This document shows positions 4,006-27,945 of a DNA stretch of 64,000 nt, in pieces. Where the stretch lies: contig OY970172.1 in the NCBI GenBank assembly GCA_963707655.1, forward strand, positions 992,001 through 1,056,000, read 5' to 3'. Each line of letters begins with the position of its first letter. The first letter of the stretch is position 1. The position numbers were made by a program, and so were the translations under genes. Origin of the DNA: an uncultured bacterium. Its GTDB lineage: Bacteria > Babelota > Babeliae > Babelales > Vermiphilaceae. Under the pieces are notes generated by a model. The model worked only from the letters and a program-made list of their open reading frames with translations. It had not been told where the DNA came from and did not search any database.

Positions 4006-4082
4006 GTGCCCGTAGCTCAGCTGGATAGAGCGACAGACTTCTAATCTGTAGGTCGTAGGTTCGACTCCTACCGGGCACACCA
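4006..4082 (+). tRNA. tRNA-Arg(UCU)
   Basis: GTGCCCG/CGGGCAC acceptor stem, D arm AGCTCAGCTGGATAGAGC, anticodon arm ACAGA-CTTCTAA-TCTGT, GGTTCGACTCC T arm, encoded CCA. Confidence 0.97.
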
Positions 4083-5537
4083 CTTTCCAGTTTTTACTGT
4101 TTCCAATATCTCATTAAATACCGGTTTCAGCTGTATATCGAGCTTTTCATCTTTATAAGAGCAGTTCGAAACTAGAATATTGATCAATCGGCGTTTTTGT
4201 TCCGCATCTTGCTTTTGAAACAGTACAATCGCCTTTCTTGAGAGTTCTAAGACCAGATTCGCATTTTCAAGATAATTCTTATCGGCTCTTTGAAGCGCCA
4301 GAAGCTTTAAAGCTAAACGCTCTTTTTCTTCTATCCATTTTGATGCATGAGACTGCCAGAATTCTTCACTAATTTTTTTATCAATTTTATCCAGATATGC
4401 TTGATCGATTCTGTTCTGAAGAAATTTTATTTGTCGCTCTGTTTGTTGAACCAGCTTATTATGATAATCAACCTTTTCCTTTAAGCTCGATCGAAGACTC
4501 TCCATAATGATTTCCCGAGCTTGCTCTGAAATAGCTATATTTCTTAATATCCCCTCAAGCTGCGTTTCAAGAATCTCTTGCTTCAAATAAACCTGCTGAC
4601 AGTTGCCTTTATGACCGGTACATCTGTAGTAGATATATTTCTCTTTTTTTATTTCGGCAGTTAAAGAACAACCGCATATACCGCATCTGATTAAATTGGT
4701 ATAAGGAAATAGGCCTTTTCTTGATTTGTTTTTGTATGGATTCTTAAGCATTGTCTGAACTTTATGAAATAGCTCCTTACTCACAATAGCTTCATGAGAG
4801 GCATTTTCATACCGTTTCCCTCTCCAAGAAAAAACCCCGGTATAGAAATCATTTTTTAAAATGATTTCTACATTGCTGCTGTAAAAATTTTTACCATTTC
4901 TATAGATCATGCCATCAGCAAGCATCTTTTTGCGTAAATTGAGTAAAGAGTAAGATCCTGTTGCATATAATTCAAACATTTTCTTAATGAATAGTGCAGC
5001 ATCAGGGTCAACAACGATAACCTTTTTACCATCAACTTTGGCATTCAAATAACCATAAGGAGCAATCGATGGGTAAGTTCCCTGAGCAGCTTTTTCCTGC
5101 ATACCCTTTTTCACTTCTTCTGAGAGATTATCGATGTAATTTTTGGCCATCAAGGCCTTGATGCCAAAAATGAATTTTTCATTAGAGCGAGATTCTCGGC
5201 TTAGAGTAGAGTTTTCTTTCACAAGGTGAATTGTAATATCCGTTTGTGAAGTCAACTTATCAATTAAAGCATAATCAGACATGTTACGTGTAAGTCGATC
5301 TGTTTTTTCAACAAGAATGTGTTTTATGGACTGATCTTCATGAATAAGATTCAGCATTTTGTTGAACTGTGTACGCCCGGTCTTTTTTGCAGTTTCAACA
5401 TCAGTAAATTTCCCCACAACCGTATAGCCATTCTTTAGGGCATACTCATTCAAGATCTTGAGTTGGGCGGGTATGGAAAACCCTTCGGCTTCTTGGTCTT
5501 TAGAGGAAACTCGAGCATAAATGAGCGCTTTGTTCAT
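4068..5537 (-). CDS. Large serine recombinase (integrase)
   Basis: YARVSS catalytic motif, DRLTR, recombinase domain (PYGY), zinc ribbon CGICGC..YYRC..C, coiled coil; last codons WCAR* overlap the tRNA 3' end. Confidence 0.95.
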   Translation of the reverse strand: MNKALIYARVSSKDQEAEGFSIPAQLKILNEYALKNGYTVVGKFTDVETAKKTGRTQFNKMLNLIHEDQSIKHILVEKTDRLTRNMSDYALIDKLTSQTDITIHLVKENSTLSRESRSNEKFIFGIKALMAKNYIDNLSEEVKKGMQEKAAQGTYPSIAPYGYLNAKVDGKKVIVVDPDAALFIKKMFELYATGSYSLLNLRKKMLADGMIYRNGKNFYSSNVEIILKNDFYTGVFSWRGKRYENASHEAIVSKELFHKVQTMLKNPYKNKSRKGLFPYTNLIRCGICGCSLTAEIKKEKYIYYRCTGHKGNCQQVYLKQEILETQLEGILRNIAISEQAREIIMESLRSSLKEKVDYHNKLVQQTERQIKFLQNRIDQAYLDKIDKKISEEFWQSHASKWIEEKERLALKLLALQRADKNYLENANLVLELSRKAIVLFQKQDAEQKRRLINILVSNCSYKDEKLDIQLKPVFNEILETVKTGKWCAR

Positions 5538-5548
5538 AGCTGTATACC

Positions 5549-5716
5549 TTATTTGCTCAAAATTCCTATTTTTTTGTCCTCTTCCAGGTGGTTTTTGATC
5601 GCTTCAACCACCAATTCCTTCATAGTTTTACCTTTAATGGCGGCAAAAGCTTTAAACTTTTTATGGTCTTCTTCAGGGATATCAATGGTAATTCGAGATA
5701 AATTTTGTTTTTGCAT
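5549..5716 (-). CDS. Small ribbon-helix-helix (ParG-like) DNA-binding protein, not in ORF track
   Basis: Manual translation MQKQNLSRITIDIPEEDHKKFKAFAAIKGKTMKELVVEAIKNHLEEDKKIGILSK*; directly upstream of and co-oriented with the recombinase. Confidence 0.75.
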   Translation of the reverse strand: MQKQNLSRITIDIPEEDHKKFKAFAAIKGKTMKELVVEAIKNHLEEDKKIGILSK

Positions 5717-5800
5717 AAAAAAATCCAATATTTACGAGACATTTTAATAGCTAATGATACAATAAAGATATAAAGAAATAAAGAAATACTTGGGGGTTTT

Positions 5801-6664
5801 GTGAATATATTCAGATATATATCGAATTTATTTGATAAGGGCGTCAATTTAAAGCCCTCTATTGAGAAAAAAATCACTATCAATAATGAACCTGATTCTA
5901 AAGAGACACGCAAAAAGAGTGCTCAAAGGGTCAGAAATATCTATGATCCCTTGTCTACCAAGCCTTATAAGCTAAGTCGTAGCAAAATAGAGCTTTTCAT
6001 GCGTTGTAAGCGTTGTTTTTATATTGATCGTCGATTAGGAGTTGGGCATCCTGACGGATATCCATTTTCTCTAAATATTGCAGTCGATGAACTTTTGAAA
6101 AAAGAATTCGATATTTTTCGTCTAGAACAAAAGCCGCACCCTCTCTGCCTCGAAAATAATGTAAATGCGATTCCATTTAAGCACGAAAACTTAGAAAGCT
6201 GGCGTAAATCGCTCCATGAGGGCGTTCAATACCATGTTCCTAATACAAATCTTCTCATCCATGGTGGCCTTGATGATGTTTGGATTAATCAGGATACTGG
6301 TGAACTTCTAGTCGTTGATTACAAAGCTACCTCAAAAAACGGAGAAATAACTCTAGATGCCGATTGGCAAATTGGTTATAAGCGCCAAGCTGAAATCTAT
6401 CAGTGGCTTTTACGTAAAAATGACTTCACGGTATCTAATACTGCCTATTTTGTTTACTGCAATGGTAAAAAAGACATGCCACTGTTTGATAAAAAACTGC
6501 ACTTTGAGGTTACCTTACTGCCTTATGTAGGGAACGATTCGTGGGTGGAAGAAGCAGTTAATGGAGCTTACAGATGTCTTCAAACTAACACTATCCCTGC
6601 AGCAGAAAAGTCATGTGACTATTGTCAGTATTGGAACGGTGTCACTAACCACTTAATAAAATAA
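5801..6664 (+). CDS. PD-(D/E)XK nuclease family protein (Cas4/AddB-like)
   Basis: LSRSKI..CKRC, GGLDD, VVDYK, QAEIY, C-terminal CDYC cysteines. Confidence 0.85.
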   Translation: MNIFRYISNLFDKGVNLKPSIEKKITINNEPDSKETRKKSAQRVRNIYDPLSTKPYKLSRSKIELFMRCKRCFYIDRRLGVGHPDGYPFSLNIAVDELLKKEFDIFRLEQKPHPLCLENNVNAIPFKHENLESWRKSLHEGVQYHVPNTNLLIHGGLDDVWINQDTGELLVVDYKATSKNGEITLDADWQIGYKRQAEIYQWLLRKNDFTVSNTAYFVYCNGKKDMPLFDKKLHFEVTLLPYVGNDSWVEEAVNGAYRCLQTNTIPAAEKSCDYCQYWNGVTNHLIK

Positions 6665-6699
6665 CCATCAAATTTAAAAGATGTATTGATAAAGTAAAT

Positions 6700-9600
6700 A
6701 TGATCTCTCCAAAACACCTCAAAGCTACTTATTTTTCCTCAAAAGGACTATTTCATAACCTTTCTAGCTTTACAAGCTTGGAAAATCGGATAGCCAATCT
6801 TCCTGAAATTGAACGTGGAGATGCCTTTGAAGTCTTTGCTGAGGCCTATCTCAAAACCCAATCCCTTCATCAAGTCGAGGAGATATGGCCAGAAAAGTCG
6901 CTGCCTCAAAGTCTACGTGAATTACTTAATATTCCTTCTGACGCTGGTATCGATGGGGTTTTTAAGACATCTTCTGGTCATTATAAGGCTTACCAGGTTA
7001 AGTTTAGGTCGAACAGAGGCTCTCTAAGCTGGGGTGGTGATAGTTTGGGTAATTTCTTTGGTCAGGCTGATAGAGTGAGTGAGCGAATACTTTTTACCAA
7101 TTCAATGGATTTATCCGATCTAGCTGCCTCTCGCGTCAATTTTTATTCTATCAAGGGGAATGAGCTAGATTGCCTTGAGCCTTCAGATTTTAAAACCATA
7201 GAAGATTGGCTTAAAACGGGAGTTGCTCGACGAGAAAGGCTAAAGCCCAAAGACCATCAGCAACAAGCTATAAATGCGATTATAGATGAACTTAGCGTAA
7301 AAGATCGAACGACGGCTATTATGGCGTGCGGAACTGGCAAAACCCTTGTCGCGCTTAGAGCTGCTGAAAAACTTCAAGCCAAGACGATCCTGGTTCTGTT
7401 GCCATCACTTGCCTTAATAAGGCAGACGCTTCATGATTGGGCGCGGGATCATGGCTGGGAGAAATTTCACTTTTTATGTGTTTGTTCTGACCATACTGTC
7501 GTTAATGATGAAAGCGAAATGATCTTGTTTCAGCGAGATTTAGATTTTGCTGTTACAACTCAACCGGAAGAAATTGCAGCTTTTCTCAACAATGGTAATG
7601 TAGCGCCTAAAATTATATTTTCTACCTATCAATCCTGTCGAATGGTAGCCCAAGCGATGCCAGGCAATTTTGCTTTTGATCTAGCTATTTTTGATGAAGC
7701 ACATAAAACAGCTTCTCGTTTGGCGACAAATCATGCTTTTGCGTTAAGCGAAAACAATATTGCAATCAAGAAGAGATTATTTTTAACTGCAACACCCCGA
7801 CACTATAACATTGATGTAAAAGACAAGTTTGGGGATAACCAGCTAGTTTTTTCGATGGATGATGAGACTATTTATGGCCGTGTCGTGTATAAACTTTCAT
7901 TTAGAGCTGCCGTTGAGCAGGGCCTCATCTGTGATTACAAAGTACTTATCTCCGTAATCACCTCTGATATGTTGAATCGCGAGCTGCTTAAGCGTGGCGA
8001 GGTATTGATTGATGGTGATATCATCAAGGCGCAACGCATTGCAAATATTTTAGCGATACAAAATGCCGTAGAACAATATGGCGTTAAGCGAATCTTCTCC
8101 TTCCATAGTTCGATATCAGCGGCTAAATCATTTACCGCTAAAACCAATGAAGGCGTAGGCGCATACCTGACTGATTTCGCGACGATGCATGTGAGCGGTG
8201 AGATGTCGTCAAGCAAGCGAGATGCTATTTTGAGTGAATTTCGCGATGCAGAGAAGGCACTAATTTCAAACGCTCGTTGTTTAACTGAGGGTGTAAACGT
8301 ACCAGCAGTTGACATGGTTGTTTTTGTTTCACCTAAGAGAAGTAAAGTTGATATTGCACAGGCTGCCGGTCGTGCAATGCGTAAGCATCCAGGCAAAGAG
8401 CGTGGCTATATTTTGATCCCATTATTCATGCAAGACGCAGGACAAGAAGAGCTAGAGCAGGCGCTTGCAAAAACAAAATTTGATACAGTCTGGGACGTGC
8501 TTCAGGCAATGTGCGAACAGGATGAGAGTTTAGTGGAAATTATCGCTAAGCTCAGAGAAGCTCGTGGCAGGATACTTGGTGTTAATGATAGTAGGCTGAG
8601 GGAGCGCGTAGAGATACTTGGACCAGAACTCGCCTTAAAGAGCTTGCGTGATGCAATTACAACAAGGATGATTGATAGGCTTGGTTTATCTTGGGATGAA
8701 AGATTTGGACAACTGGTTAGATTTAAAGAAGAGAGTGGCCATTGTTTGGTCCCTAATCGATATCCAGAAAATCCTGGTCTTGGGCAATGGGTACAAAAAA
8801 ATCGATGGGATTACAAAAAAAATGCGCTGGGATCTGAGCGTATTAAAAGATTAAACGAGATAAATTTTGCGTGGGATTATGAGGAGGCAATATGGAATAC
8901 ACGATACTTAGATCTTTGTCATTTTCAACAAATTAACGGTCATTGTAATGTGCCTCGTAATTATCATGATAGGCAGTTGGAATATTGGGTAGGCACTCAG
9001 CGAGTTTCCTATAAAAAAGGTAAGTTATCCAGTATTCAGATAAAACAGTTAGAAAAAATAGGGTTTGTCTGGGATTGTATTGAGGAAAACTGGCATAGCA
9101 ACTATTCGATGCTCGCTGAATTCAAACAAAAAAATGGTCATTTTGTCGTTCCAAAAGATACGCGCGAGAATAAGCAATTAGCTACTTGGGTTTCTGCTCA
9201 GAGAAAACTTCAGAAAAAAGGTAATCTATCTTCAGAAAAAATTTATTTACTTGAACAAATTAACTTTATGTGGGATCCGGTAAAGGCAATCCTCGAGGAG
9301 AGATTTTCCCAAATACTAAGTTTTTTTGAAAAAAATGGACACTGTAATGTTCCCGACAGCTATGACGAGATAGTTCCTGGATTGTGTTCCTGGCTTCGGT
9401 CTAGAAGAAATTTATATCGGAAAAATTTGCTAGATATTGATCAGATAAAACGCCTAGAGGAAATGAAAATTAAGTGGGACCCTTTTGATGCTAATTGGGA
9501 AGAGCAATTCGAAGCTTTAGTTCTTTACAAGTCGAAGAACGGCCATACCTCTGTGTCTAAAAAATATCATGAAAGCCCATCTTTGGGATTATGGGTGTTA

Positions 9601-11160
9601 CGTCAACGATCAAAATATCGTGAGGGAAGCCTAGCAAAAGAACGCGTTGAGCGACTAAATAGCTTGGGCTTCGAGTGGGAATTGCCTAAATTAAAAAAGG
9701 ACGTTGTAGCACAAGAAAGAAAGTCATATTCTGAGATTTGGGAAGAAAGATTTATCTTGTTGCAGCAATATAGAGATATCCATAATCATTGTAATGTACC
9801 TCAAAATTATCAAGATAAATCGCTTGCCATGTGGGTTGGAACGCTGCGTACACTCTATAACAAAAGGAGTCCACGACTTTCGGCTGAAAAAATCAAGAAG
9901 CTTGATGCCATTGGATTCGACTGGGAGCCTACGACATCTCAGTGGGAAAATATGTTCTTAAAATTGCGTGAATTTAAACGCGTTTACGGACATTGTAATG
10001 TGCCGAGAAGCCAACGGCTTCTTGCTACATGGGTGGGCGTGCAACGTAAGCAGCATAAGAAAAATAGCATGATCCCTACCCGCATAAGTAGATTGAATGA
10101 AATCGGTTTTATATGGGACGTTAAAAAAGAATACTGGCATAAAATGTTTCATGAATTAAAGAAATTTATTGAAATTAATGGGCACTGTAATGTTTTTAGA
10201 ACAGGCAAGCTGGGCAATTGGGTTGCAAACCAGAGAGGTAATTATAAACGAGGAACGTTACCGTCTGCTCAAATTAACAAACTTAATGAAATAAATTTTG
10301 TTTTTGTCCCCTATGCTACAGCTTGGGAGAAAAATTATAGTGATTTATGCCTGTTTGTTAGGGAAAATGGGCATTGCATAATTACGTCTGAAACCCTTGT
10401 GAGTTCCCCACTCCTTACTTGGGCTCATAACCAACGTTCTGATTACAAAAATGGGAACCTATTCATAGAACAAATTAAAAAACTTAATGATATTGGTTTT
10501 GTTTGGGATTTCTTGGCTTATAAATGGGAAAAAAACTTTGAGGAGTTGCTGAAATTCAAAAGTGTTCATGGGCATTGCAACGTTCCTGGTAAGTTCAAAG
10601 AAAACATTTCCTTATCTCATTTCGTTGTTGCACTTCGTAAAAATTATAAAAAGGGAATTTTGTCTAAAGAACAGGTTAAACGGCTAAATGATCTCGGCTT
10701 TATTTGGGATGTTTTAGAAGAGCAATGGGAAAAGAAATATCAAGACTTAATCAAGTTCCATGAAATTTATAGCCACTGCAATGTTCCAAATGATTATAGT
10801 GATCAAGGGTTACTCTCTTGGATAAAAAATCAACGTACTTATAAAAAATTAGGCAAGTTATCTCCAGAGCGAGTTTGCAAACTAGATGCAATTGGGTTTG
10901 TTTGGTATGTATTAGATACTTCTTGGGATGATGCATTTACAGCTTTATGTTTATTTAAGAACACTTATGGGCACACTAAAGTTCCTGCAACGCGCGTTAT
11001 TAACAATATTGCTTTAGGTAATTGGGTCAGAACGCAACGTGCAGCTCATCAAAATAATAAGCTTACTAAAGAACGTTTTGAAAAATTACAGAGCATAGAT
11101 TTTTCTTGGGCCATTATGGCACGATCTCAAAAACAAACATCCAAACTATCTATGGAGTAG
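6700..11160 (+). CDS. Mrr-like nuclease / SF2 helicase / 12x helicase-associated (HA) repeat protein
   Basis: GDAFE..DAGIDG..QVK nuclease motif; MACGTGKT, DEAH, TAT, QAAGRAMR helicase motifs; 12 repeats of W....L..F....GHC.VP...L..W...QR. Confidence 0.9.
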   Translation: MISPKHLKATYFSSKGLFHNLSSFTSLENRIANLPEIERGDAFEVFAEAYLKTQSLHQVEEIWPEKSLPQSLRELLNIPSDAGIDGVFKTSSGHYKAYQVKFRSNRGSLSWGGDSLGNFFGQADRVSERILFTNSMDLSDLAASRVNFYSIKGNELDCLEPSDFKTIEDWLKTGVARRERLKPKDHQQQAINAIIDELSVKDRTTAIMACGTGKTLVALRAAEKLQAKTILVLLPSLALIRQTLHDWARDHGWEKFHFLCVCSDHTVVNDESEMILFQRDLDFAVTTQPEEIAAFLNNGNVAPKIIFSTYQSCRMVAQAMPGNFAFDLAIFDEAHKTASRLATNHAFALSENNIAIKKRLFLTATPRHYNIDVKDKFGDNQLVFSMDDETIYGRVVYKLSFRAAVEQGLICDYKVLISVITSDMLNRELLKRGEVLIDGDIIKAQRIANILAIQNAVEQYGVKRIFSFHSSISAAKSFTAKTNEGVGAYLTDFATMHVSGEMSSSKRDAILSEFRDAEKALISNARCLTEGVNVPAVDMVVFVSPKRSKVDIAQAAGRAMRKHPGKERGYILIPLFMQDAGQEELEQALAKTKFDTVWDVLQAMCEQDESLVEIIAKLREARGRILGVNDSRLRERVEILGPELALKSLRDAITTRMIDRLGLSWDERFGQLVRFKEESGHCLVPNRYPENPGLGQWVQKNRWDYKKNALGSERIKRLNEINFAWDYEEAIWNTRYLDLCHFQQINGHCNVPRNYHDRQLEYWVGTQRVSYKKGKLSSIQIKQLEKIGFVWDCIEENWHSNYSMLAEFKQKNGHFVVPKDTRENKQLATWVSAQRKLQKKGNLSSEKIYLLEQINFMWDPVKAILEERFSQILSFFEKNGHCNVPDSYDEIVPGLCSWLRSRRNLYRKNLLDIDQIKRLEEMKIKWDPFDANWEEQFEALVLYKSKNGHTSVSKKYHESPSLGLWVLRQRSKYREGSLAKERVERLNSLGFEWELPKLKKDVVAQERKSYSEIWEERFILLQQYRDIHNHCNVPQNYQDKSLAMWVGTLRTLYNKRSPRLSAEKIKKLDAIGFDWEPTTSQWENMFLKLREFKRVYGHCNVPRSQRLLATWVGVQRKQHKKNSMIPTRISRLNEIGFIWDVKKEYWHKMFHELKKFIEINGHCNVFRTGKLGNWVANQRGNYKRGTLPSAQINKLNEINFVFVPYATAWEKNYSDLCLFVRENGHCIITSETLVSSPLLTWAHNQRSDYKNGNLFIEQIKKLNDIGFVWDFLAYKWEKNFEELLKFKSVHGHCNVPGKFKENISLSHFVVALRKNYKKGILSKEQVKRLNDLGFIWDVLEEQWEKKYQDLIKFHEIYSHCNVPNDYSDQGLLSWIKNQRTYKKLGKLSPERVCKLDAIGFVWYVLDTSWDDAFTALCLFKNTYGHTKVPATRVINNIALGNWVRTQRAAHQNNKLTKERFEKLQSIDFSWAIMARSQKQTSKLSME

Positions 11161-12228
11161 TTTTTTAAGCGCAACAATTTCTTCTGGCGCTAAATCGAAT
11201 TCTTTGTTTTTATCTAATGATCTCATTATTTCTCCCTGCCTATATTCATCTACGCTGCCATAGCTGGTGAATGTTGTTAATGGATTATTATGACCTATAT
11301 TTTGACTCCATACCTTAAATTCTTCAGGAGTTTTGCACAACTTGTAACCTAATTGAGCTACGGTGTGACGAAATGAATGCGGATTGTAGTAGGTTAGTCC
11401 AGCATTGTGAAATGCCTCTTCTATCACTTTTCTCAATGATGTAGTTGATTTCCATGGAGTCGAACCAAGCAGCGTCCTGCTGAATTTATCATTAGCGCCC
11501 AGTGACAATGCGGTACAAGGAAATAATGGAGCTTCATCATCAAATAGCTTTTCCTTCTTTAAGAAATTTACCCACTCAATGAAGATTTGCTTAAGGAAAT
11601 CGCCTACAGGAAAAAAGTAGGTAATAATCATCTTGCTGTTTTTTGTTTTTACCTCGTCCGGACGTTGCTCTATGCGTTGCTCGTCCAAAAGTATGTGCTT
11701 AAGTTTGAATGAAGCTACTGCCTGAATTCTTGCGCCACTAATGGCCATAAAAGCTATGAGAGCACGGTTCCTTTTTTGAATCTCAGTTTCTGCCGGCATG
11801 CTTTTTACCACATGTTCTATTTGTTCCAAGGTAGGGTAACGTTTAGGTTTTTGAGTTCTTGCTATTCTGATGTCTTTATCTTGTAATTTGAAATACGCAA
11901 TTTCACATGAGCGTATTCTGCTTCTGTACCCAGGCTGCGTCACCAGCCACTTGAAAAAGTCACTTAGGCTTCTTGTGGCATGTAGCAGGTAGGTTTTACT
12001 GACAAGCGTTTCCGTGCGTTTTGATTTCTTTTGCATAAGATGTTTTTTGAATCCGATAGCGTCATTCTTGTTAAATAACTTGAAGCTTTTAAAGCCTGTG
12101 TATTCCTCATAAATATACAGGTAATTTTGGATGTTAATAGCAGTTGAGCTGCTCTTGCCATTAGCCTCCTTTTCCCATTCCAAATACTTACGTTTAATTC
12201 GTTCGTTTTCAGCGTTATATTTGATCAT
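11146..12228 (-). CDS. Tyrosine recombinase/integrase
   Basis: SGAR, KTK, HSFRH, IGH and SY catalytic-type residues. Confidence 0.9.
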   Translation of the reverse strand: MIKYNAENERIKRKYLEWEKEANGKSSSTAINIQNYLYIYEEYTGFKSFKLFNKNDAIGFKKHLMQKKSKRTETLVSKTYLLHATRSLSDFFKWLVTQPGYRSRIRSCEIAYFKLQDKDIRIARTQKPKRYPTLEQIEHVVKSMPAETEIQKRNRALIAFMAISGARIQAVASFKLKHILLDEQRIEQRPDEVKTKNSKMIITYFFPVGDFLKQIFIEWVNFLKKEKLFDDEAPLFPCTALSLGANDKFSRTLLGSTPWKSTTSLRKVIEEAFHNAGLTYYNPHSFRHTVAQLGYKLCKTPEEFKVWSQNIGHNNPLTTFTSYGSVDEYRQGEIMRSLDKNKEFDLAPEEIVALKKLLHR

Positions 12229-12240
12229 TTTAGTCTCCTT

Positions 12241-12732: not shown

Positions 12733-12863
12733 CTTTCATATCCCACTCGAGCAATAAATCAAAAAGATCAATTAATGGCTGGATATCAGATTTGATTTCT
12801 AGCCTATCTCCTTGCTGAGTTATGCTTTGCTTTTTTATGTCCATCGGTACTACTCAACAAAAT

Positions 12864-13136: not shown

Positions 13137-13218
13137 AATCTTTACCTTTTGGGTTAAGGGTTAAGCTTTAACTGAAGACAAGGTAATAAAAAGGGTTCGG
13201 GCCCGGCTGGGCCCAGAA

Positions 13219-14235: not shown

Positions 14236-14290
14236 CTTCTTTACCTCTTAAAATACGTTTTTTATATTCTAATCGGTAAAAGTAGATTCT

Positions 14291-16489: not shown

Positions 16490-16490
16490 C

Positions 16491-17209: not shown

Positions 17210-17246
17210 TGGAGGCATTTTTGAAGAGCATCTGTATTTAGTAGCT

Positions 17247-19483: not shown

Positions 19484-19485
19484 AT

Positions 19486-20040
19486 ATGCATTGGAAACAG
19501 AAGCTTGGAACGCTGGAGAAACAGAAAAAATGGGATGCTGCCATAGAATTAATGATCCATGTTATTGATGAGAATTCTGGGTCTATAGATCCGTATATTT
19601 ATATGAATTATTTACTTATGAATCTTTTGGTAGAAGAAGATTATGACAATGATAAATATAGCTATTACAAATTATTAATAAAAAAATATTTTGACGAATC
19701 TTATGCTAAATTTTCTGATAATGCTGAGTATCTTTTTTTCACTGCTTCCACCGCTCTAATGTCTGAGTGGCATTTTGATATTGATGTAAAAGATTATGAT
19801 GCAATGTTTAAAAAAGCTCTAGTCTTAGAACCCGATAATCTTCTTTATCAAGACTATTATTACACTATGCTAGATAAAACTATCCCAAGCAATAAAAAGG
19901 CCGCAGTAGAATATGCAAAAAAAATACTGGAACCAAAGTCTTCTATTCAAATAATATTGAATTCCAAAGGCGCTATAGGAGAACGCCTTTTGGGATTAAT
20001 GACAAATTGGAGCTTAAGGATTCTTGGCATGAAGCCTTGA
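19486..20040 (+). CDS. Putative immunity protein 2 (helical/TPR-like)
   Basis: 2 nt after the toxin stop; paralog of 24795..25355. Confidence 0.72.
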   Translation: MHWKQKLGTLEKQKKWDAAIELMIHVIDENSGSIDPYIYMNYLLMNLLVEEDYDNDKYSYYKLLIKKYFDESYAKFSDNAEYLFFTASTALMSEWHFDIDVKDYDAMFKKALVLEPDNLLYQDYYYTMLDKTIPSNKKAAVEYAKKILEPKSSIQIILNSKGAIGERLLGLMTNWSLRILGMKP

Positions 20041-20102
20041 GGCTCTTCCAAGCACACCTTAACAAAGTATATAGGGATAAAATATCCTTGATGGCTTTTT
20101 TG

Positions 20103-20404
20103 CTAATGACCAATATCACCCAAAGACCATATTGCCAAAACTAACGAATTGTCCACAGAGAAGTTGCTGAAATAGACCGATAGGGCACACCACTCTTCGT
20201 TTATTCCGCCGTCGCCAAGGCTATGGCGGACAGGCTGGGGGCAAGATAGAGCTCGGCGAAAGCCTGAAGAAGCTCGTGAGAGCGAAGACAGGCAAGCTTC
20301 GTCTGGCTGCCGCCAGCAACTTTTTTACCCATTCTTTGCATCTTCATAAATCCTTGGTATATCTACTAAGACTTTTTCCAGGAATCTAACTTTCAGGGAG
20401 AACT
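20103..20404. repeat. Junction repeat 3 (core 20183-20192)
   Basis: AAGTTGCTGAAATAGACCGATAGGGCACACCA plus leader. Confidence 0.92.
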
Positions 20405-22303
20405 ATGAAGATTATTATTTTGATCGGCATTCTACTACAATCAGCAGCTATCCAAGCCGTGTATCCCACTAGAGAGTTAACAACAAACTGGGATATCTCA
20501 ACGCGAAGTCGCGGCATATCACAAAATAGTCTTGATCACATGAACCGTCCTTAATATGTAAAGGGCATTGCCTGCCTTGACCAGTGTCATGCGAAGCGCG
20601 ACTCTGCGCGACCATCTTCTATACTTTTCACTAATCCAAAACAATGTGCTTATTGGACATCATCTGATTATTATGCCGCTCTAGCCCATGACTATGGCAT
20701 ACCAATTACCATTGAAAACGCAGGGAGCATAGCAGAAGAGTTGCGTTATTACCATTGCCCTCATGATCAAAGAAATTTTTTGTATATCCCCGAATACGTC
20801 ATTACCAATATTATGCATCAAGAGAAGCTGTACGCTCATAAAAATTTCATCGATTTTATAAAAAAATTTGATTGGTATGAGGATGAGTTATTGGCTCTGC
20901 ATGATAAAGTTATGCACAGACACGATTCTTGGAAGTCATTTTTTAAAAAGAAGTTTTCAGATCAGGTGATAGCTGCACTAGTATCTGAGCGCAATCGAAT
21001 TGTTAACGCAAGAAGAGACAAAAGAAAGCGCGAAGTTGAAGCCACCGTCATAAAAAATAATTTTCAAAGCGAGTTACTTGGCATCCAAGGGATGGTCAAT
21101 GAGCAACAAGAGTTGCATGAGATTGCCAATACATATAACTTGCATAACAAAAATCATTATGAAACTCGTCTGGCCGCGCTTGAAGATGTTTTGAACAGCA
21201 GAAGCTGCACGCAGCAATCGTACAGCTTCAACAATGATGCATTGACCTTGCTTTCACAAGTAGGGTGCAGTGCTGAACAGTATAAAACTAATTATGGTAA
21301 TCAATTGCAGCAAGTCATTCACCGTGAATGCATCGATATTGTCTCACAGGCAGCGCAACTTTCTGTGCATTCTCCCCTCTATGATTATAAAAATTCATTA
21401 GTTAATTTTACCGATTCGGCTCGTTCATATAATCAGGAAGGCTCGTCTGGCAGAGCGATGCAAATCAATGATTTTTGCTATGCATTACTCGATTATGGCT
21501 CGGCCATTGTTGAGGGCATTGCCTGTGGTGTCATTGGCGCAGCCAAAGATATGATTAACCATCCAGTTCAGACAGCGCTGTGCGTAGTGGCCGGTGAATA
21601 TGTGTTGGCCTATCAATTGCTTAAAGTCACGACTAACCTTGCCTCCATCGGAATATCCTATGCCTTTGATAAAGAAGCTGGCGAGCAGCAATGGCATGAA
21701 TATATTGAGCCGATAACGAGCGTGATCAGCGCTATCAAAAACAAAGAGCTGACTCTGCGAGATGGCATTAAAGGAGCCGTCACCCTTGGCACCGGTATGT
21801 ATGCGCAAGGCAAGATGCTTAAAGGTCTGAATTCTTTTTACAACACGACAAAAGCAAAAGCTCTTGAATTCGCTAAAAATAATCCGTTGGTCACTCCTTT
21901 TGAGTATATGACCACTCAAGAGGGAGTGTTGTTTAAGGTTACCGATAAAACAAGTAAAACTGGTCCTTGGCAACAAAATGATATCGAATGGATTCCTTAT
22001 GGCCACAAGCACATTGCTAGTAAAAAAATGAGTTGGAAAGATATTCTTCAATTCACAAAAAATGGCCCTGCCAAATATAAACCAGAAATTAATGTTGAAC
22101 TCTTAGAAACAATGGCATGGCAAAAGGGAACAATGATTCCTGGTAAGAACTGGAAAATTTATCAATGTGAAGACATAATTGGTGCAAACAATGGCATTGA
22201 AACTAACTTTATGATAGTAAAAAATAGTATGGCTACAATTCATGGACATCCAATAACCCCGCAAGAATTTAAACAATACATGAATATGATAGGAAAATTA
22301 TGA
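20405..22303 (+). pseudogene. Polymorphic toxin 3 with nonsense codon at codon 50
   Basis: ATG at 20405 as in toxin 2; CAA>TAA at 20552-20554; frame continues as ORF 20741..22303 with a distinct tip ending IHGHPIT. Confidence 0.8.
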
Positions 22304-22614
22304 AACTTAATATAAACCTGAATAATGGGATTATTGTCTATGATGAATTTAATATTGATCCCAATCTCCCGCTAAAAGATCAAATTATGGAATTGCAAGA
22401 AGATCTTCTACAAATACAATATGATAATAATGTAGTTATTGACGTTGGATGGTATCCTGAACTTGATCCATCCGGAAGCTTTATTATTAATATAATAAAA
22501 GATTCTGATTGGTCTCATCCTATATATAAAAAAACAGTTAAATTAAAAAATATTGTTGCTGAACTACAAAAAGCAATTGATTTGGCTCTCACATTAAATG
22601 GTCGATCTATCTAA
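22300..22614 (+). CDS. Putative immunity protein 3
   Basis: ATGA overlap with the toxin stop; EDLLQIQY..IDVGWYP motif; acidic, 104 aa. Confidence 0.72.
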   Translation: MKLNINLNNGIIVYDEFNIDPNLPLKDQIMELQEDLLQIQYDNNVVIDVGWYPELDPSGSFIINIIKDSDWSHPIYKKTVKLKNIVAELQKAIDLALTLNGRSI

Positions 22615-22864
22615 ACACAATTTCTTGACCTGATTGAGAACATCAGCTTCAAAAGAAAAGTTGCTGAAATAGACCGATAGGGCACACCAGCCTTCGCTTA
22701 TTCCGTTGTCGCCAAGGCTATGGCTGACATGGCCGGGCAAGAGAAGACTCGGCAAGCTTCGTCTGGCTGCCGCCAGCAACTTTTTTACCCATTCTTTGCA
22801 TCTTCATAAATCCTTGGTATATCTACTAAGACTTTTTCCAGGAATCTAACTTTCAGGGAGAACT
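22594..22864. repeat. Junction repeat 4 (core 22680-22689, shorter leader)
   Basis: AAAAGTTGCTGAAATAGACCGATAGGGCACACCA plus leader lacking an internal segment present in junctions 1-3. Confidence 0.92.
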
Positions 22865-24788
22865 ATGAAGATTATTATTTTGATCGGCATTCTACTACAA
22901 TCAGCAGCTATCCCAAGCCGTGTATCCCACTAGAGAGTTAACAACAAACTGGGATATCTCAACGCGAAATCGCGGCATATCACAAAATAGTCTTGATCAC
23001 ATGAACCGTCCTCAATATGTAAAGGGCATTGCCTGCCTTGACCAGTGTCATGCGAAGCGCGACTCTGCGCGACCATCTTCTATACTTTTCACTAATCCAA
23101 AACAATGTGCTTATTGGACATCATCTGATTATTATGCCGCTCTAGCCCATGACTATGGCATACCAATTACCATTGAAAACGCAGGGAGCATAGCAGAAGA
23201 GTTGCGTTATTACCATTGCCCTCATGATCAAAGAAATTTTTTGTATATCCCCGAATACGTCATTACCAATATTATGCATCAAGAGAAGCTGTACGCTCAT
23301 AAAAATTTCATCGATTTTATAAAAAAATTTGATTGGTATGAGGATGAGTTATTGGCTCTGCATGATAAAGTTATGCACAGACACGATTCTTGGAAGTCAT
23401 TTTTTAAAAAGAAGTTTTCAGATCAGGTGATAGCTGCACTAGTATCTGAGCGCAATCGAATTGTTAACGCAAGAAGAGACAAAAGAAAGCGCGAAGTTGA
23501 AGCCACCGTCATAAAAAATAATTTTCAAAGCGAGTTACCTGGCATCCAAGGGATGGTCAATGAGCAACAAGAGTTGCATGAGATTGCCAATACATATAAC
23601 TTGCATAACAAAAATCATTATGAAACTCGTCTGGCCGCGCTTGAAGATGTTTTGAACAGCAGAAGCTACACGCAGCAATCGTACAGCTTCAACAATGATG
23701 CATTGACCTTGCTTTCACAAGTAGGGTGCAGTGCTGAACAGTATAAAACTAATTATGGTAATCAATTGCAGCAAGTCATTCACCGTGAATGCATCGATAT
23801 TGTCTCACAGGCAGCGCAACTTTCTGTGCATTCTCCCCTCTATGATTATAAAAATTCATTAGTTAATTTCACCGATTCGGCGCGTTCATATAATCAAGAA
23901 GGCCTGTCTGGCAGAGCGATACAAATCAATGACTTTTGCTACGCATTACTCGATTATGGCTCAGCCATTGTTGAGGGCATTGCCTGTGGTGTCATTGGCG
24001 CAGCCAAAGATATGCTTAACCATCCAGTTCAAACAGCGCTGTGCGTAGTGGCCGGTGAATATGTGTTGGCCTATCAATTGCTTAAAGTCACCACCAACCT
24101 TGTATCTATTGGCATAAGCTATGCTTTTGATAAAGAAGCTGGGGCGCAACAGTGGCATGAATATATTGAACCAATCACCAATGTTATAAGCGCCATTACC
24201 AACAAAAAATTGTCCCTGCGTGACGGCTTTAAAGGAGCCGCCGCCCTTGGCACCGGTATGTATGCGCAAGGCAAGATGCTTAAACGACTGAACTCTTTTT
24301 ACAATACAACAAAAACAAAAGCTCTTGAATTCGTTAAAAATAATCCTTTGGCAACTCCTGCCGAATACATGACTACTTCTGACGGGGTATTGTTTAAAGC
24401 AACACAAGAGTCTTTATGCAATAAGTCTCAAAAAGACATCGAAAGTTATTTTAAACAAGAAGTACCGCAAGGCCAGTCAAACTTGCCTACTTATTCTCTT
24501 CCATCTAAGATTGAACAAGCCGTAAAATATGCTACAACCAATGAAAAACTTGAATATTTTTTTAAAAAAGAAATGCATGGGCTTGAGCCATTGCTAAAAA
24601 CAATGGATAACAACAAAGAAAAAGTTGTTCGTGAAGTTATCGGGTTGTTGTCAATTAACAATGATATGCCTAGATTTGGTAAGTTTGATGGAATACCTAT
24701 AAATATAAATGGATATATTGTTCATGCACGGGGATTTGTTCATGATGATGTTATTAAACTTGGCACTATCTTTATTCCGCAAGGGTAA
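22865..24788 (+). pseudogene. Polymorphic toxin 4 with +1 frameshift in the signal-peptide region
   Basis: GCTATCCCAAGCC (22912-22914 CCC) versus GCTATCCAAGCC in toxins 2 and 3; remainder is ORF 22920..24788; tip paralogous to toxin 2. Confidence 0.75.
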
Positions 24789-24794
24789 ATAACT

Positions 24795-25355
24795 ATGTCT
24801 TGGAAAGAGAAGCTTAGAACATTAGAGCGACAAAAAGAATGGGACGCTGCTATAGAACTAATGATCCATACCATTAATCACAACCCAGATGACATGGATG
24901 CATATATATATATGAATTATTTACTCATGAATCTTTTGGTAGAGGAAGATCATACTAGCATTGATGAAAACAAGTTTGCTTATTATGAAACGCTGACCAA
25001 GCATTACTTCGATGAGTCTTATGCTAAATTTTCAAATAATGCAGAATATCTTTTCTTCACTGCAACAACAGCTGTCATGTCTGAGTGGTTTTTTGGCATT
25101 GATGTGCCGGACTATGAAGCTATGTTTCAAAAAGCTATGCTTCTCGAGCCCAACAACCTCCTTTATCAAAGAATTTACTATATGGATCTTGATAAAACTA
25201 TCCCTGGTAATAAAAAGGCTGCAATGGAATATGCTAAAAAAATTTTAGATAAAGATTCTCCTATTCAAAAAACATTGAAGTCTAAAGGCGCTGTTGGCGC
25301 GTATTTGCTAGAATTGATGACAAATTCAAGTTTGGAGATGCTCGGCATGAAATAA
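24795..25355 (+). CDS. Putative immunity protein 4
   Basis: Follows toxin 4; paralog of 19486..20040. Confidence 0.72.
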   Translation: MSWKEKLRTLERQKEWDAAIELMIHTINHNPDDMDAYIYMNYLLMNLLVEEDHTSIDENKFAYYETLTKHYFDESYAKFSNNAEYLFFTATTAVMSEWFFGIDVPDYEAMFQKAMLLEPNNLLYQRIYYMDLDKTIPGNKKAAMEYAKKILDKDSPIQKTLKSKGAVGAYLLELMTNSSLEMLGMK

Positions 25356-25470
25356 CTAATAACTTGTAGCAAAAAGTATCTGCTGATCCTGATTCATGCT
25401 AATCTGGTCAAGTAAAAAGTTGCTGAAATAATCCGATAGGGTACACCAGCTTTCGCTAAAGCTTCAGCTG
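25356..25470. repeat. Junction repeat 5 (core variant GGGTACACCA 25439-25448)
   Basis: AAAAAGTTGCTGAAATAATCCGATAGGGTACACCAGCTTTCGCT. Confidence 0.85.
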
Positions 25471-25682
25471 GCAGACAGGTCGTCTGTACCATTGTAGAAA
25501 AACTTTAATAGTAAATAGCGAAGACGGTCCGAAGAAGCCGCGGGTATAGACGGACTTTTTCCAAAAAAGTAAATCTCTAGCAATTTTTGTCCGTAACTTA
25601 TTAGTCTTACATTGATCAGCAAGGTCACAAAACATCGGCATAATGAACCCTCACATTGTACTTGGATGAGGCATTGTGATCG

Positions 25683-26189
25683 ATGAAAAACTGGCAACAA
25701 CACTCTATACTTGAGGTCTTATGTATGTTGATACGCATTAATGCTTTTACCCAAAACCATAGTAATACAATACCTAAAAAATATACCTGTGATGGTGAAG
25801 GAATTTCCCCCGAAATTAGTTGGGATGAAGTACCAGAAAAAACAGAAAGCTTTGCGCTTATTATGGAAGGTCTTGATGTTCCCAATAGAAGCAATGCTTT
25901 GGTGTTATGGGTTATCTACAATATTCCTGGCGCTCTACGAACCATTGCCTCAAACTCTATTCCCGAACAAGCTAAAGTTGGCATTAATGATTTGGGGAAA
26001 AAGCGATATAGCGCCCCATGCCCAAAACCGGGACCGCATCCTCAAAAATATCAAATTACCTTATATGCTCTCGATACAACATTGATATTCTTGCCCGATG
26101 AGACAACAAAGGAAGATTTAGTGAAAGCCATGAAAAAGCATGTTTTGGCAACAGCAGAAAATATTGGTTTTTGTGAAAGACATGGATAA
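25683..26189 (+). CDS. YbhB/YbcL (PEBP/Raf kinase inhibitor-like) protein
   Basis: IPKKYTCDGEGISP, FALIM.GLD.P, WVIYNIP, APCP, YALD; start uncertain. Confidence 0.88.
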   Translation: MKNWQQHSILEVLCMLIRINAFTQNHSNTIPKKYTCDGEGISPEISWDEVPEKTESFALIMEGLDVPNRSNALVLWVIYNIPGALRTIASNSIPEQAKVGINDLGKKRYSAPCPKPGPHPQKYQITLYALDTTLIFLPDETTKEDLVKAMKKHVLATAENIGFCERHG

Positions 26190-26226
26190 ATTGCATCTAA
26201 GTTGAGAGTGCTAAGAAGGCTGTTGT

Positions 26227-26784
26227 TTACCTATTGGTATCCACTGAGTACCCAAAAGCTCTTAATATATCTTTGGTCTGAGTTTCTGGTGTAACATTAT
26301 CAATAATGTATACGATAATTCCTTGCTCATTAATCAAAAAAGATTTGCGCAACGCATAGAGGTTGCCCATTGCATGTTGATCAGTGCCATACATATGCGC
26401 GACTTCATGCTTCATATCTGATAATAAGATGAATGGGAGTCTTTCTTGTTCTTTAAATTTTTTGTGTGATTCAGGAGAATCATAGCTGACCCCAATGACT
26501 ACGATGTCATGTTGCTTGAACTGATCAAAAGAATTGCGCAACTCGCATGCCTCTTTCGTACAGCCCGGCGTTCCATCTTTTGGATAAAAATAGAGAACTA
26601 TTTTTCTGCCCTTGAATGAGGCAAGTGAGCGTGAAGCTCCTGTTTCATCAGGTAGGGTGAATAAAGGAGCCGCATCACCAACTTTAACTTTTTCAGCCGG
26701 TGTACGTTTGTATTTCCCCAACATAAAAATACAGGCTATTGCAATCAAGCCCAAGATAATGAGCGACATTAAAAGAGTATTCAT
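26227..26784 (-). CDS. bcp: Peroxiredoxin BCP/PrxQ with N-terminal anchor
   Basis: LYFYPKDGTPGCTKEAC motif. Confidence 0.92.
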   Translation of the reverse strand: MNTLLMSLIILGLIAIACIFMLGKYKRTPAEKVKVGDAAPLFTLPDETGASRSLASFKGRKIVLYFYPKDGTPGCTKEACELRNSFDQFKQHDIVVIGVSYDSPESHKKFKEQERLPFILLSDMKHEVAHMYGTDQHAMGNLYALRKSFLINEQGIIVYIIDNVTPETQTKDILRAFGYSVDTNR

Positions 26785-27104
26785 ACTATTTTCCTCTGCA
26801 TCAGCTCAGCTATTTTTCAATATTTTCTTTAACTCATCTTACCAATGGTTTCTGTTTTTAAAAATGGTTCTCAAAGCAACTTTAATGGAAAGTTATAATT
26901 AAAATCAACAACATTCATAAGTATTTCATGGTTCGCAGGAACAATCATGAGAATCCGCAGAAATGATCACATATCTCTAGCAAGTAGTATTCGCCTGATG
27001 TCGAATAAATTAATATTTTTCTGTACAGAAGTTGGGTGAAATAAGCCGACAAATGCATAATAATCTGCGCAGAAATATCGAGTGACTTTTTTTGATTTCT
27101 GTGT

Positions 27105-27130
27105 GGGAACTATGAAGATTATTATCCTGA
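27105..27130 (+). pseudogene. Relic of a toxin gene start
   Basis: GGGAACTATGAAGATTATTATCCTGA versus GGGAGAACTATGAAGATTATTATTTTGA at toxin starts (MKIIIL), followed by an early stop. Confidence 0.55.
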
Positions 27131-27252
27131 ATTGAAGATTCTCTATATTGGCTTTTAAATGGCTGACAATTTTAGTGCGTTCATGGAAACTCTTTATTTT
27201 TCACTTCAAAAATATGTATAAGATATAAAATAATATTTATAGAGGAGTTTAC

Positions 27253-27807
27253 ATGAAAAAACAATTAGAAGGACTCAAAGTCGCGATCCTTTGCGATACC
27301 GGTTTTGAACAAAATGAAATGACAGAACCTAGAAAAGCATTAGATCAAGCCGGTGCTGAAACAGTGCTTGTTTCTCCTGTATATGGGAAAATAAGAGGCT
27401 GGATTGATGACCAATGGAGAGATGAATTTCCTGTCGACCTTGATTTGAATAATGCAAATCCAGATGATTATGATGCTCTACATCTTCCGGGTGGGGTAAT
27501 CAATCCTGATAAACTACGCAGATTTGAATCGGCAATTGCTTTTATTAAAGCATTTGTTGACGCTAAAAAACCAATCGCAGCCATTTGCCACGGGCCTTGG
27601 ACCCTCATTAATGCACATGGCGTGAAAGGAAAAACCCTCACTTCATGGCCCTCGATTAAAATCGATCTCGTCAATGCCGGTGCAAACTGGGTCGATAAGC
27701 CAGTGGTTAGAGATGGTCTTTTGGTAACGAGCAGATGGCCCGCAGATATAGCTGCATATAACCCCGTGATGATAGAAATGTTCGCGGAAGTACTAAAGAA
27801 AAAATAA
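27253..27807 (+). CDS. PfpI/DJ-1 family (YhbO-like) protein
   Basis: GFEQNEMTEP, LPGGVINPDKLR, AAICHGPW, VTSR. Confidence 0.93.
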   Translation: MKKQLEGLKVAILCDTGFEQNEMTEPRKALDQAGAETVLVSPVYGKIRGWIDDQWRDEFPVDLDLNNANPDDYDALHLPGGVINPDKLRRFESAIAFIKAFVDAKKPIAAICHGPWTLINAHGVKGKTLTSWPSIKIDLVNAGANWVDKPVVRDGLLVTSRWPADIAAYNPVMIEMFAEVLKKK

Positions 27808-27820
27808 GAAAGATCATCAC

Positions 27821-27945
27821 TAAAAGTATCGGCCCAACCTGACTCATGTTGACCTGATCACAATCACAACAAAAGTTGCTCAAGTAGTGCGCACATAAGT
27901 GCCCCGATAATCCAATAGGGGCACACCAGTTCTCGCTAAGGCTTG
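27821..27945. repeat. Degenerate junction repeat 6 (core 27919-27928)
   Basis: AAAAGTTGCT at 27871; ATAATCCAATAGGGGCACACCAG..CGCTAAGGCT. Confidence 0.75.

Follow-up and report, generated by a model that had tools for sequence, protein, structure and literature searches.

Tandem recombinase-less units, among them polymorphic toxin modules, behind a large serine recombinase element at a tRNA-Arg gene of a Vermiphilaceae bacterium

Introduction

Composite islands of the staphylococcal cassette chromosome (SCC, SCCmec) hold cassettes that excise singly or in groups via a neighbouring recombinase (PMC11470126; see also PMC6222049); the first of these accounts also describes large serine recombinases (LSRs) of the Ccr type excising tandem cassettes that have no recombinase of their own (PMC11470126). 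In tycheposons, as the sections of their description on island structure have it, a partial copy of the tRNA stands between one element and the next, remnants are scattered in the island, and tyrosine recombinases are found in 910 of 937 elements (bioRxiv 10.1101/2020.12.28.424599). The locus described here bears a likeness to both. It is a tandem array of units beside an LSR gene at the 3' end of a tRNA-Arg(UCU) gene, in a stretch of 64,000 nt (the window; positions 992,001 to 1,056,000 of contig OY970172.1, assembly GCA_963707655.1) of an uncultured bacterium of the family Vermiphilaceae (Dependentiae). The genome under study, called G000 where it must be told apart from others, is a single contig of 1,091,075 nt with 41% G+C. 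The array may have arisen by serial site-specific integration at the tRNA end, the units being afterwards reshuffled at a short site.

Two further kinds of system serve for comparison. Polymorphic toxin loci such as Rhs and contact-dependent inhibition (CDI) loci have orphan modules and a conserved N-terminal scaffold, and recombine at the border between scaffold and toxin. Integrases of the A118 and TP901-1 type insert a phage once, by recombination of attP with attB; stacking at one site and action on attR-type sites would be unusual for them. An earlier note on this DNA had taken the units for non-autonomous cassettes served by the adjacent recombinase.

Results

Layout of the array

The single tRNA gene in the window is that of tRNA-Arg(UCU) (Table 1). 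Its last 10 nt, GGGCACACCA (4073-4082), here called the core, recur exactly at 14365, 17330, 20183, 22680 and 27919 and with one mismatch (GGGTACACCA) at 25439, all on the + strand and with core-to-core spacings behind the first recurrence of 2965, 2853, 2497, 2759 and 2480 bp, just as the earlier note had reported. All six exact copies in the genome fall in this window, where matches with at most one mismatch number 10 against 1.71 expected, a figure reached by none of 100 shuffles. Each of the downstream cores is preceded by a conserved arm, whose inner part (the inner arm) measures some 22-30 nt; one further match with a single mismatch, at 10969 inside a helicase gene, lacks it and was taken as chance. 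A profile search of the whole genome returned eight significant sites of arm plus core, all on the + strand, six in the window and two at tRNA-Arg(UCG), while five weaker matches (E 0.3-1.8) cover only the part of the model formed by the core and the trailer behind it. The supposedly constant context of the cores is constant in part: arm and core stand at each, the arm being a variant (AAGTTCTAAAATAG) at 14365 and carrying an insertion at 27919, and the same 'leader' follows at four of the six downstream copies (14365, 17330, 20183 and 22680), with other trailers at 25439 and 27919. Past the end of the array as first drawn lies a seventh, decayed boundary (28738-28830). Sites are thus increasingly eroded away from the tRNA, from the mismatch at 25439 through the variant arm at 27919 to this last one. 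Behind the intact LSR element there are at least six recombinase-less units; the ORFs (open reading frames) tested in them have no recombinase domain in Pfam, as the earlier note had it.

A conserved arm and a core that follows the tRNA

Relatives were searched among 80 genomes of the family, and 11 loci with an orthologue of the LSR were fetched. Orthologues (56-70% identity) occur in 12 of the 79 other genomes, at three tRNAs, which amounts to a presence/absence polymorphism among relatives. That of G024 is 67% identical over 489 aa without gaps and likewise ends in WCAR on the complement of the tRNA end. In 11 of 11 fetched loci the LSR gene overlaps or abuts a tRNA gene at its 3' end, namely that of tRNA-Arg(UCU) in five, tRNA-Ala(GGC) in two and tRNA-Glu(UUC) in four, and in seven the arm profile finds the arm at the far end of the element. 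The core at the arm is in each case the end of the local tRNA, i.e. TCCACCA at Ala (G080), GGGACGCCA at Glu (G093) and GGGCACACCA at Arg. Because the arm stays constant from one tRNA to another and the core does not, the arm is the element's own conserved right end and the core a copy of the 3' end of the target tRNA; every boundary, in which a trailer follows the two, is therefore a junction of attR type. The proposal that the repeats are att-type sites is thereby borne out, since the core switches with the target tRNA across genera. When 21 sites are compared, only about 48 nt (-30 to +8 around the core) prove conserved, which is the size expected of an LSR att site; beyond them the outer arms fall into unrelated subfamilies.

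The idea that the arm of about 80 nt is the decayed 5' part of a tRNA was dropped, no positional similarity to tRNA-Arg being visible on inspection. A pattern search of genome contigs gave eight matches, one of them in a metagenome-assembled genome of Lachnospiraceae (taken as chance). No match to the LSR was found in G001, which belongs to the same genus but is a fragmented genome, its tRNA-Arg(UCU) contig stopping 425 nt past the tRNA. In G080, the tRNA-Arg(UCU) beside a PT-HINT toxin unit (L080 5419-5494) reads GGGCACAA followed by TAGG, with no encoded CCA, whereas the arm copy 2.5 kb downstream of it retains GGGCACACCA, so that only GGGCACA is common to both.

The large serine recombinase and its element

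The recombinase next to the tRNA is, as had been proposed, a large serine recombinase. It is of full length, with a catalytic domain (residues 4-154) and both C-terminal Pfam families, and its residues 183-428 can be aligned with the serine integrase of A118 (4kis). Its N-terminus reads YARVSS, which we take to be the catalytic motif. It scores far below the NCBIfam cut-offs for the Ccr proteins (CcrB 90.7 bits against 900, CcrA 73.3 against 700, CcrC 47.4 against 900) and below that of the XisF model as well. The last four codons (WCAR) and the stop of the gene overlap the tRNA 3' end on the opposite strand and thus come from the tRNA (window 4068-4082, 14339-14374); in a circular form the frame would run into the arm and give the protein a different C-terminus.

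The element also encodes a tyrosine recombinase, which reaches 53 bits against a cut-off of 220 with the XerA/integron-integrase model. Its 1486-aa helicase belongs to superfamily 2 (SF2), with the 12 helicase-associated (HA) domains in tandem (Pfam HA, E 4.3e-211). NCBIfam has no family for the HTH_17 protein or the 338-aa ORF. In the element of G024 (L013 6574-9625) a primase-like gene (CHC2 zinc finger and Toprim) and a DUF5906/VapE-like gene replace the nuclease and helicase of G000; replication modules are therefore exchangeable in this element family. A second LSR family, 32% identical to the first and more widespread in the bacterial family, is represented in G000 at genome 250758-252188 (+) and also ends at a tRNA 3' end, that of tRNA-Asp (c[252201-252278]); genes of the toxin scaffold described below adjoin it in G010, G080 and G085.

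The 'leader' as a tRNA trailer

The sequence behind the cores had been regarded as a structured leader of the cassettes. Compared with the genome by blastn, the leaders match directly 3' of the genes for Tyr, Phe, two Ser, Lys, Arg(UCG), Leu, His, Thr and other tRNAs. A trailer that starts with [GACT][CT]CT[TAG][CT]G stands directly 3' of 20 of the 38 tRNAs and comes in two types. Because such trailers adjoin genuine tRNAs, core and leader together are simply the ordinary look of a tRNA 3' end and its flank in this organism; the leader is a tRNA trailer with a terminator and not a cassette feature. In G000 the trailer-type sequence starts exactly at the core at all six downstream copies, with no relic of an LSR. 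Ten type-2 trailers allow the CCA end of the tRNA to pair with a downstream CTGG (CCAGCC/GGCTGG), a helix that is preserved at 25439 in the array through compensation (CCAGCU/AGCUGG), and a terminator scan shows all four toxin leaders to finish in the same terminator-like hairpin and T-run. Folding of one leader alone gave a z-score of -2.2, and a scan of positions 1-34000 against Rfam (E<=1) returned only the tRNA and an antisense chance match, hence no known RNA family for the leader. A closing stem between AAAAGTTGCTG and CAGCAACTTTT was set aside, the arm being a DNA site that is conserved without the leader.

Trailers are GC-rich and 75-86% alike between unrelated tRNAs (e.g. window 14375-14500 and 25449-25560; elsewhere, genome 110949-111073 and 271921-272051). 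A 33-nt piece of type-2 trailer is found in many contexts in sequencing run X4, at a depth of 28.9. Such trailers may serve in 3' processing or in termination, or may belong to the target of integration. The promoter that had been proposed for the units, a candidate of the form TTGCAT ... TGGTATATC upstream of GGGAGAA-ATG, is absent from the 50 sites of a consensus scan, in which 46.1 +/- 6.5 were expected.

A second array at tRNA-Arg(UCG)

The two remaining sites of G000 (genome 315530-315561 and 318536-318567) belong to a second array (312098-318600), at a tRNA-Arg(UCG) with a type-2 trailer. One of its units carries ParE and PhzF, the other a GIY-YIG gene, an Ntox17 toxin and a putative immunity gene; no recombinase was found at this array. 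Its cores, GGGCGCACCA and GGGTGCACCA, have G at position 5, as has the end of the local tRNA (AGGCGCACCA), whereas all seven cores of the window have A. The GIY-YIG gene (121 aa; genome 315721-316086, L001 12721-13086) replaces the first half of a type-1 leader before the toxin of this locus. It accompanies its module in the metagenome contigs L123 and L124; its matches there fall in two frames, which may mean a frameshift.

Joints between units in relatives

Metagenome contigs were scanned for the inner arm and core. Eight of those recovered are 83-97% identical to G000, and in them units are combined differently. The module consisting of core GGGCGCACCA, type-2 trailer, GIY-YIG gene and toxin stands behind three left partners: PhzF with arm iii at the second locus of G000, a toxin without assignment with arm iv in L123, and an Ntox17 toxin with its putative immunity gene and arm ii in L124. 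The PhzF module with arm iii is itself found before two right partners, one in G000 and one in L125 and L127, from two samples. In L126, a Colicin-D-type immunity pair, which in G000 belongs to the first locus, adjoins the flank of the second. Position 5 of the core goes with the right partner (3/3 for the GIY-YIG module) and the dinucleotide at -8/-7 mostly with the left, so that the exchange point would lie within CCGATAGGG(C), at the border of arm and core. The partners share no other homology, and the joints therefore need crossovers within about 45 nt, which favours site-specific recombination.

Other contigs and genomes bear traces of lost recombinases. L122 joins the end of a module of the unit-4 type, arm and core included, to a C-terminal remnant of the LSR (aa 433-488, the last 56 codons); the two matches to G000 overlap by exactly the 10-nt core, the PEBP gene of unit 5 follows after about 270 nt, and the decayed LSR takes the place of the type-2 trailer of G000. 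Arm and core are followed by another LSR remnant (aa 1-60) in L128 and by the 3' end of the second LSR family in L121 and G017. G005 has LSR-type sequence after the tRNA without an LSR gene, and in G085 (L119) the second LSR family lies between two copies of tRNA-Arg(UCG), of which the outer is degenerate and followed by a recombinase relic. Elements of the LSR families therefore stack at tRNA ends, the older ones decaying, and since decayed LSRs stand after the site in two relatives (L122 and L128), at least some units are relics of complete elements. The description of the units as non-autonomous cassettes must be narrowed to that extent, their shared boundaries around unrelated cargo speaking in its favour.

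Cargo of the units

Four units of the window hold a signal-peptide protein of 620-645 aa with small downstream ORFs. In the proposed plan of leader, promoter, toxin and immunity gene, these are the toxin and the putative immunity gene; the promoter escaped detection, and two of the four toxin genes (toxins 3 and 4) are broken. The proteins share an N-terminal scaffold, for which there is no Pfam family, and differ in their C-termini, which are of the Colicin D type in unit 1, of the Rhs type in unit 3 (PDB 8qjc_A, an Rhs toxin domain, E 2.8e-19 over query residues 22-119) and, in units 2 and 4, related domains without a family match (against PDB, none better than E 0.18 for toxin 2). Small ORFs without family matches follow every toxin; those after toxins 2 and 4 are related, like the C-termini before them, and NCBIfam has no family for the four putative immunity ORFs searched. 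A shared scaffold with unrelated C-termini, which across loci include Colicin_D, Ntox17 and the Rhs domain of 8qjc, is the mark of polymorphic toxins, and the four units appear to be polymorphic toxin/putative immunity modules on a scaffold with a Sec signal. Over about 1.7 kb, which starts at the inner arm and covers the leader, the upstream region and the 500 N-terminal residues of the toxin, units 2, 3 and 4 show 99-100% identity, after which they diverge abruptly; in the toxin C-terminus and downstream ORF, units 2 and 4 are 61-79% alike in most windows, unit 1 being more distant.

Unrelated cargo is found between the same boundaries in several genera: MepB-like and Cass2 genes in G024, PhnA and MepB-like genes in G077, the PT-HINT toxin in G080, and ParE with PhzF at the second locus of G000. 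Recombinase-less units with common boundaries are not confined to toxins. The fifth unit of the window holds stress genes (PEBP, AhpC/peroxiredoxin and DJ-1), in agreement with the earlier note. The scaffold occurs in 25 of the 80 genomes of the family, repeatedly near LSR genes of the two families; the arm of the tRNA-Ala element in G080, for instance, has an Ntox17 toxin on either side.

Colicin D cleaves tRNA-Arg in the anticodon loop. The Colicin D unit is the one nearest to the element, and the array is anchored at tRNA-Arg genes, possibly by coincidence. In toxin 4, the frame that is open after the frameshift has a GTG start one residue before the predicted cleavage site of the signal peptide (AIQA/VYP) and would encode a toxin without signal peptide.

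Table 1. Features of the tRNA-Arg(UCU) array in window coordinates
Feature	Position	Strand	Evidence and remarks
tRNA-Arg(UCU)	4006..4082	+	ARAGORN; Rfam tRNA 74.2 bits; core = 4073-4082
Intact 10.3-kb LSR element	4083..14364	.	bounded by tRNA core and arm + core 14343-14374; Pfam, NCBIfam
LSR, 489 aa	4068..5537	-	Pfam Resolvase (PF00239) 2.5e-27, Recombinase (PF07508) 5.5e-17, Zn_ribbon_recom (PF13408) 8.2e-09
PD-(D/E)XK nuclease	5801-6664	+	inside LSR element
Helicase, 1486 aa, 12 HA domains	6700-11160	+	inside LSR element
Tyrosine recombinase	11146-12228	-	inside LSR element; weak Pfam match, 31.9 bits
HTH_17 protein	12241-12732	-	inside LSR element
SpoVG-like	12864-13136	-	inside LSR element
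338-aa ORF	13219-14235	-	inside LSR element
Site 1, inner arm variant AAAGTTCTAAAATAGTCCGATA + core	14343..14374	+	attR of intact element; nhmmer E 8.8e-17
Unit 1	14375..17307	+	type-1 trailer ('leader'); terminator-like hairpin 14481-14494
Toxin 1	14585-16489	+	C-terminus Colicin_D, Pfam 5.7e-22
Unit 1 putative immunity ORFs	16491-16961, 17003-17209	+	
Site 2, inner arm + core	17308..17339	+	nhmmer E 1.5e-18
Unit 2	17340..20160	+	leader; terminator-like hairpin 17450-17463; outer arm 20096-20160
Toxin 2, 643 aa	17552-19483	+	intact
Unit 2 putative immunity	19486-20040	+	
Site 3, inner arm + core	20161..20192	+	spanned by run X3 contig 20116-20426, 1 difference
Unit 3	20193..22657	+	leader; toxin 3; ORF 22300-22614
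Toxin 3	20405-22303	+	broken by TAA 20552-20554 (codon 50); C-terminus related to Rhs toxin domain
Site 4, inner arm + core	22658..22689	+	E 2e-19
Unit 4	22690..25416	+	leader with internal deletion
Toxin 4	ATG 22865; open frame 22920-24788	+	+1 C at about 22911-22914 shifts frame after codon 16
Unit 4 putative immunity	24795-25355	+	
Site 5, inner arm + core (1 mismatch, GGGTACACCA)	25417..25448	+	E 3.3e-17
Unit 5	25449..27863	.	type-2 trailer; Pfam
PEBP	25683-26189	+	unit 5; Pfam
AhpC/peroxiredoxin	26227-26784	-	unit 5; Pfam
DJ-1/PfpI	27253-27807	+	unit 5; Pfam
Site 6, variant arm with insertion + core	27864..27928	+	E 5.2e-05; run X3 contig 27744-28002, 0 differences
Unit 6 and decayed site 7	27929..28830	.	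short trailer
Thioredoxin	28031-28339	-	unit 6; Pfam
Decayed site 7, outer arm	28738-28811		77% identical to unit 2 end; then eroded inner arm + core

Discussion

How the array may have formed

The reading that we favour, with about as much doubt as confidence, is that an LSR family of the Babeliales integrated serially and site-specifically at the tRNA end, and that units without a recombinase were kept there and rearranged at the arm/core site. An LSR element would insert at the end of tRNA-Arg, units would be laid down behind it in turn, and site-specific recombination within a window of about 10 nt at the border of arm and core would reshuffle them, presumably through circular units. By analogy with Ccr recombinases, whose action on SCC-like cassettes has been demonstrated by experiment (PMC11470126), the most likely agent would be the neighbouring LSR acting in trans. 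Homologous recombination between the toxin genes would in addition homogenise their first 1.7 kb and delete or duplicate units. The first 15 nt or so past the core are similar in the left end of the element (CTTTCCAGTTTTTAC) and in type-1 trailers (CTCTTCGTTTATTCC); a tRNA that is already occupied may for that reason stay a target, and arm, core and trailer together may act as attP, which would explain a stacking that canonical serine integrases disallow. It is tempting to go further and to see in the locus a serine-recombinase 'cassette chromosome' on tRNA 3' ends, in which one LSR excises, stacks and reorders cassettes and moves them between the two tRNA-Arg loci, a proposal that is possible but doubtful.

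Several observations weigh against serial integration with reshuffling. Canonical LSRs of the phage type recombine attP with attB, and attL with attR only with a directionality factor, so that an array of attR-type sites is not an obvious substrate, and the element encodes a tyrosine recombinase as another possible enzyme. The arm is missing at E<=1 from the fetched regions of 4 of the 11 orthologue loci (G007, G068, G019 and G066), and the left ends of units vary, with two trailer types, LSR relics or neither. Homology of the second locus with the array of the window begins inside the leader and ends in the proposed promoter of the next unit, not at the cores, and the metagenome contigs could be mis-joined at the 45-nt repeat if assembled with short k-mers. 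Among sequencing runs, 20 had parts of the array (best share 0.30); the four best, which were used, consist of short shallow contigs (150-585 nt, depth 2-7), none spanning a unit. The only clear joint in the reads, 15310->18287, comes from one contig at depth 3.3 and falls within the conserved toxin core, away from the site; it connects toxins 1 and 2 at homologous positions, skipping 2976 nt, and is a product of homologous recombination. A second candidate joint, 20194->22780 (side 33, one contig), was too weak to use. The near-identity of units 2-4 likewise points to duplication or gene conversion and not to independent arrival, and together with the break in the toxin core it implies that homologous recombination also shapes the array. 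A variable order of cassettes among relatives, with breakpoints at the core, had been foreseen; it is seen in the contigs that join units at the site. The single break inside the toxin core is of the kind that the earlier note had named as refuting its reading.

The last observations are also what would be expected if a single toxin/immunity unit next to an attR had been amplified by unequal homologous recombination, its C-termini swapped and the cores carried along as passengers, and the N-terminal types of the toxins are indeed mosaic between loci and contigs. Such plain tandem duplication is nevertheless quite improbable. Units 5 and 6, the first unit of the second locus and the units of G024 and G077 have the same boundaries without homology to the toxins, units 2, 3 and 4 have outer arms from different subfamilies despite their near-identical 5' parts, the element's own arm is another variant than those of the cassettes, and the different left and right partners require crossovers within about 45 nt. 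A more serious contender, though still unlikely, is that only accretion and decay took place. The units would then be immobile relics of complete LSR elements pushed outward as in tycheposon islands, and strains would differ through separate histories of integration and deletion, with homologous recombination, and not through mobilisation in trans. The decayed LSR genes directly after arm and core in L122 and L128, the gene-less LSR-type sequence of G005, the degenerate second tRNA copy and recombinase relic of G085, the decay of sites away from the tRNA and the two broken toxins of four all fit this view. Random deletions, however, would not regularly leave a trailer starting exactly at the core at six sites of G000, one right module behind three left partners needs repeated exchange at the site, and a second integration into an occupied site is disallowed by the canonical rules of LSRs. 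Tandem elements with remnants at tRNA genes are, in the part of the tycheposon account that deals with them, a described arrangement (bioRxiv 10.1101/2020.12.28.424599).

Very improbable, finally, is that the tyrosine recombinase of the element, with its excisionase-like HTH_17 neighbour, acts on the 10-nt core in place of the LSR, as such enzymes commonly do in islands that integrate at tRNA genes. An exact identity of 10 nt at a tRNA 3' end is typical of the att cores of tyrosine integrases (Islander; PMC4383910), and the two genes lie near the right end of the element, a homologue being found near the arm in contig L121. Yet it is the LSR with which the arm co-occurs: none of nine scanned ORFs of the G024 element matches Phage_integrase, although arm and core are the same there, and the LSR gene reads into the tRNA end wherever orthologues were fetched, while the Pfam match of the tyrosine recombinase is weak.

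Significance

If the LSR does move the units, the SCC principle, in which one serine recombinase serves several stacked cassettes that have none, would hold outside Firmicutes and rlmH as well, at tRNA genes and in a phylum of intracellular bacteria that has been little studied. Polymorphic toxin/immunity modules would then be exchanged by a route other than homologous recombination. On the more doubtful reading as a cassette chromosome, an obligate intracellular lineage of Dependentiae would possess an exchangeable toxin arsenal. Orthologous LSRs at tRNA-Arg, tRNA-Ala and tRNA-Glu, with matching cores and a conserved arm, moreover constitute a ready data set on the change of target by serine integrases, which is of practical interest for genome engineering.

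Comparison with known systems

A search of one literature library found no published account that joins Dependentiae with a serine recombinase or with a polymorphic toxin, nor any of an LSR at a tRNA 3' end with polymorphic toxins as its cargo in this phylum. The statement of the earlier note that this is not a described system has nonetheless to be revised, since SCC composite islands and tycheposons, in those parts of their descriptions that concern tandem structures, are close analogues (PMC11470126; bioRxiv 10.1101/2020.12.28.424599). With SCC/SCCmec composite islands and the Enterococcus cassette chromosome the locus shares an LSR element at the 3' end of a conserved gene, tandem recombinase-less cassettes between att repeats, and accessory or conflict genes. 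It differs from them in its target, which is a tRNA 3' end and not that of rlmH, in having a single LSR that is no Ccr (CcrB 90.7 bits against 900) instead of the CcrAB pair, and in carrying polymorphic toxins in an obligate intracellular Dependentiae host. Tycheposons and tandem tRNA islands are alike in their serial integration at a tRNA 3' end, the partial tRNA between elements and the older elements that lie outward and decay (bioRxiv 10.1101/2020.12.28.424599; PMC4383910); the recombinase beside the tRNA and the distal repeat of the tRNA 3' end, found likewise at 7 of the 11 orthologue loci, are those of a tRNA island. Here, however, the recombinase family is that of the LSRs, the repeat consists of 7-10 nt of the tRNA with a conserved arm, and most units start with a trailer, not with recombinase relics.

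The likeness to integrons, namely recombinase-less cassettes beside one recombinase gene with a repeated boundary site, is functional only: the locus has no IntI, attC or Pc, its anchor recombinase is an LSR, and its units are 2.5-3 kb long with terminator-like and promoter-like regions of their own, four leaders ending in a terminator-like hairpin. Rhs and CDI loci share with it a scaffold with variable C-termini, each with a small downstream ORF, in tandem copies; in the present array each copy is complete, has a signal peptide and an upstream region to itself, is bounded by att junctions and is built on a scaffold without a Pfam family. The serine integrases of A118 and TP901-1 have the same three-domain architecture, with a C-terminal region that can be aligned to that of A118. 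In sum, the array resembles SCC composite islands and tandem islands anchored at tRNAs in the way it works, is a member of neither family and is not an integron.

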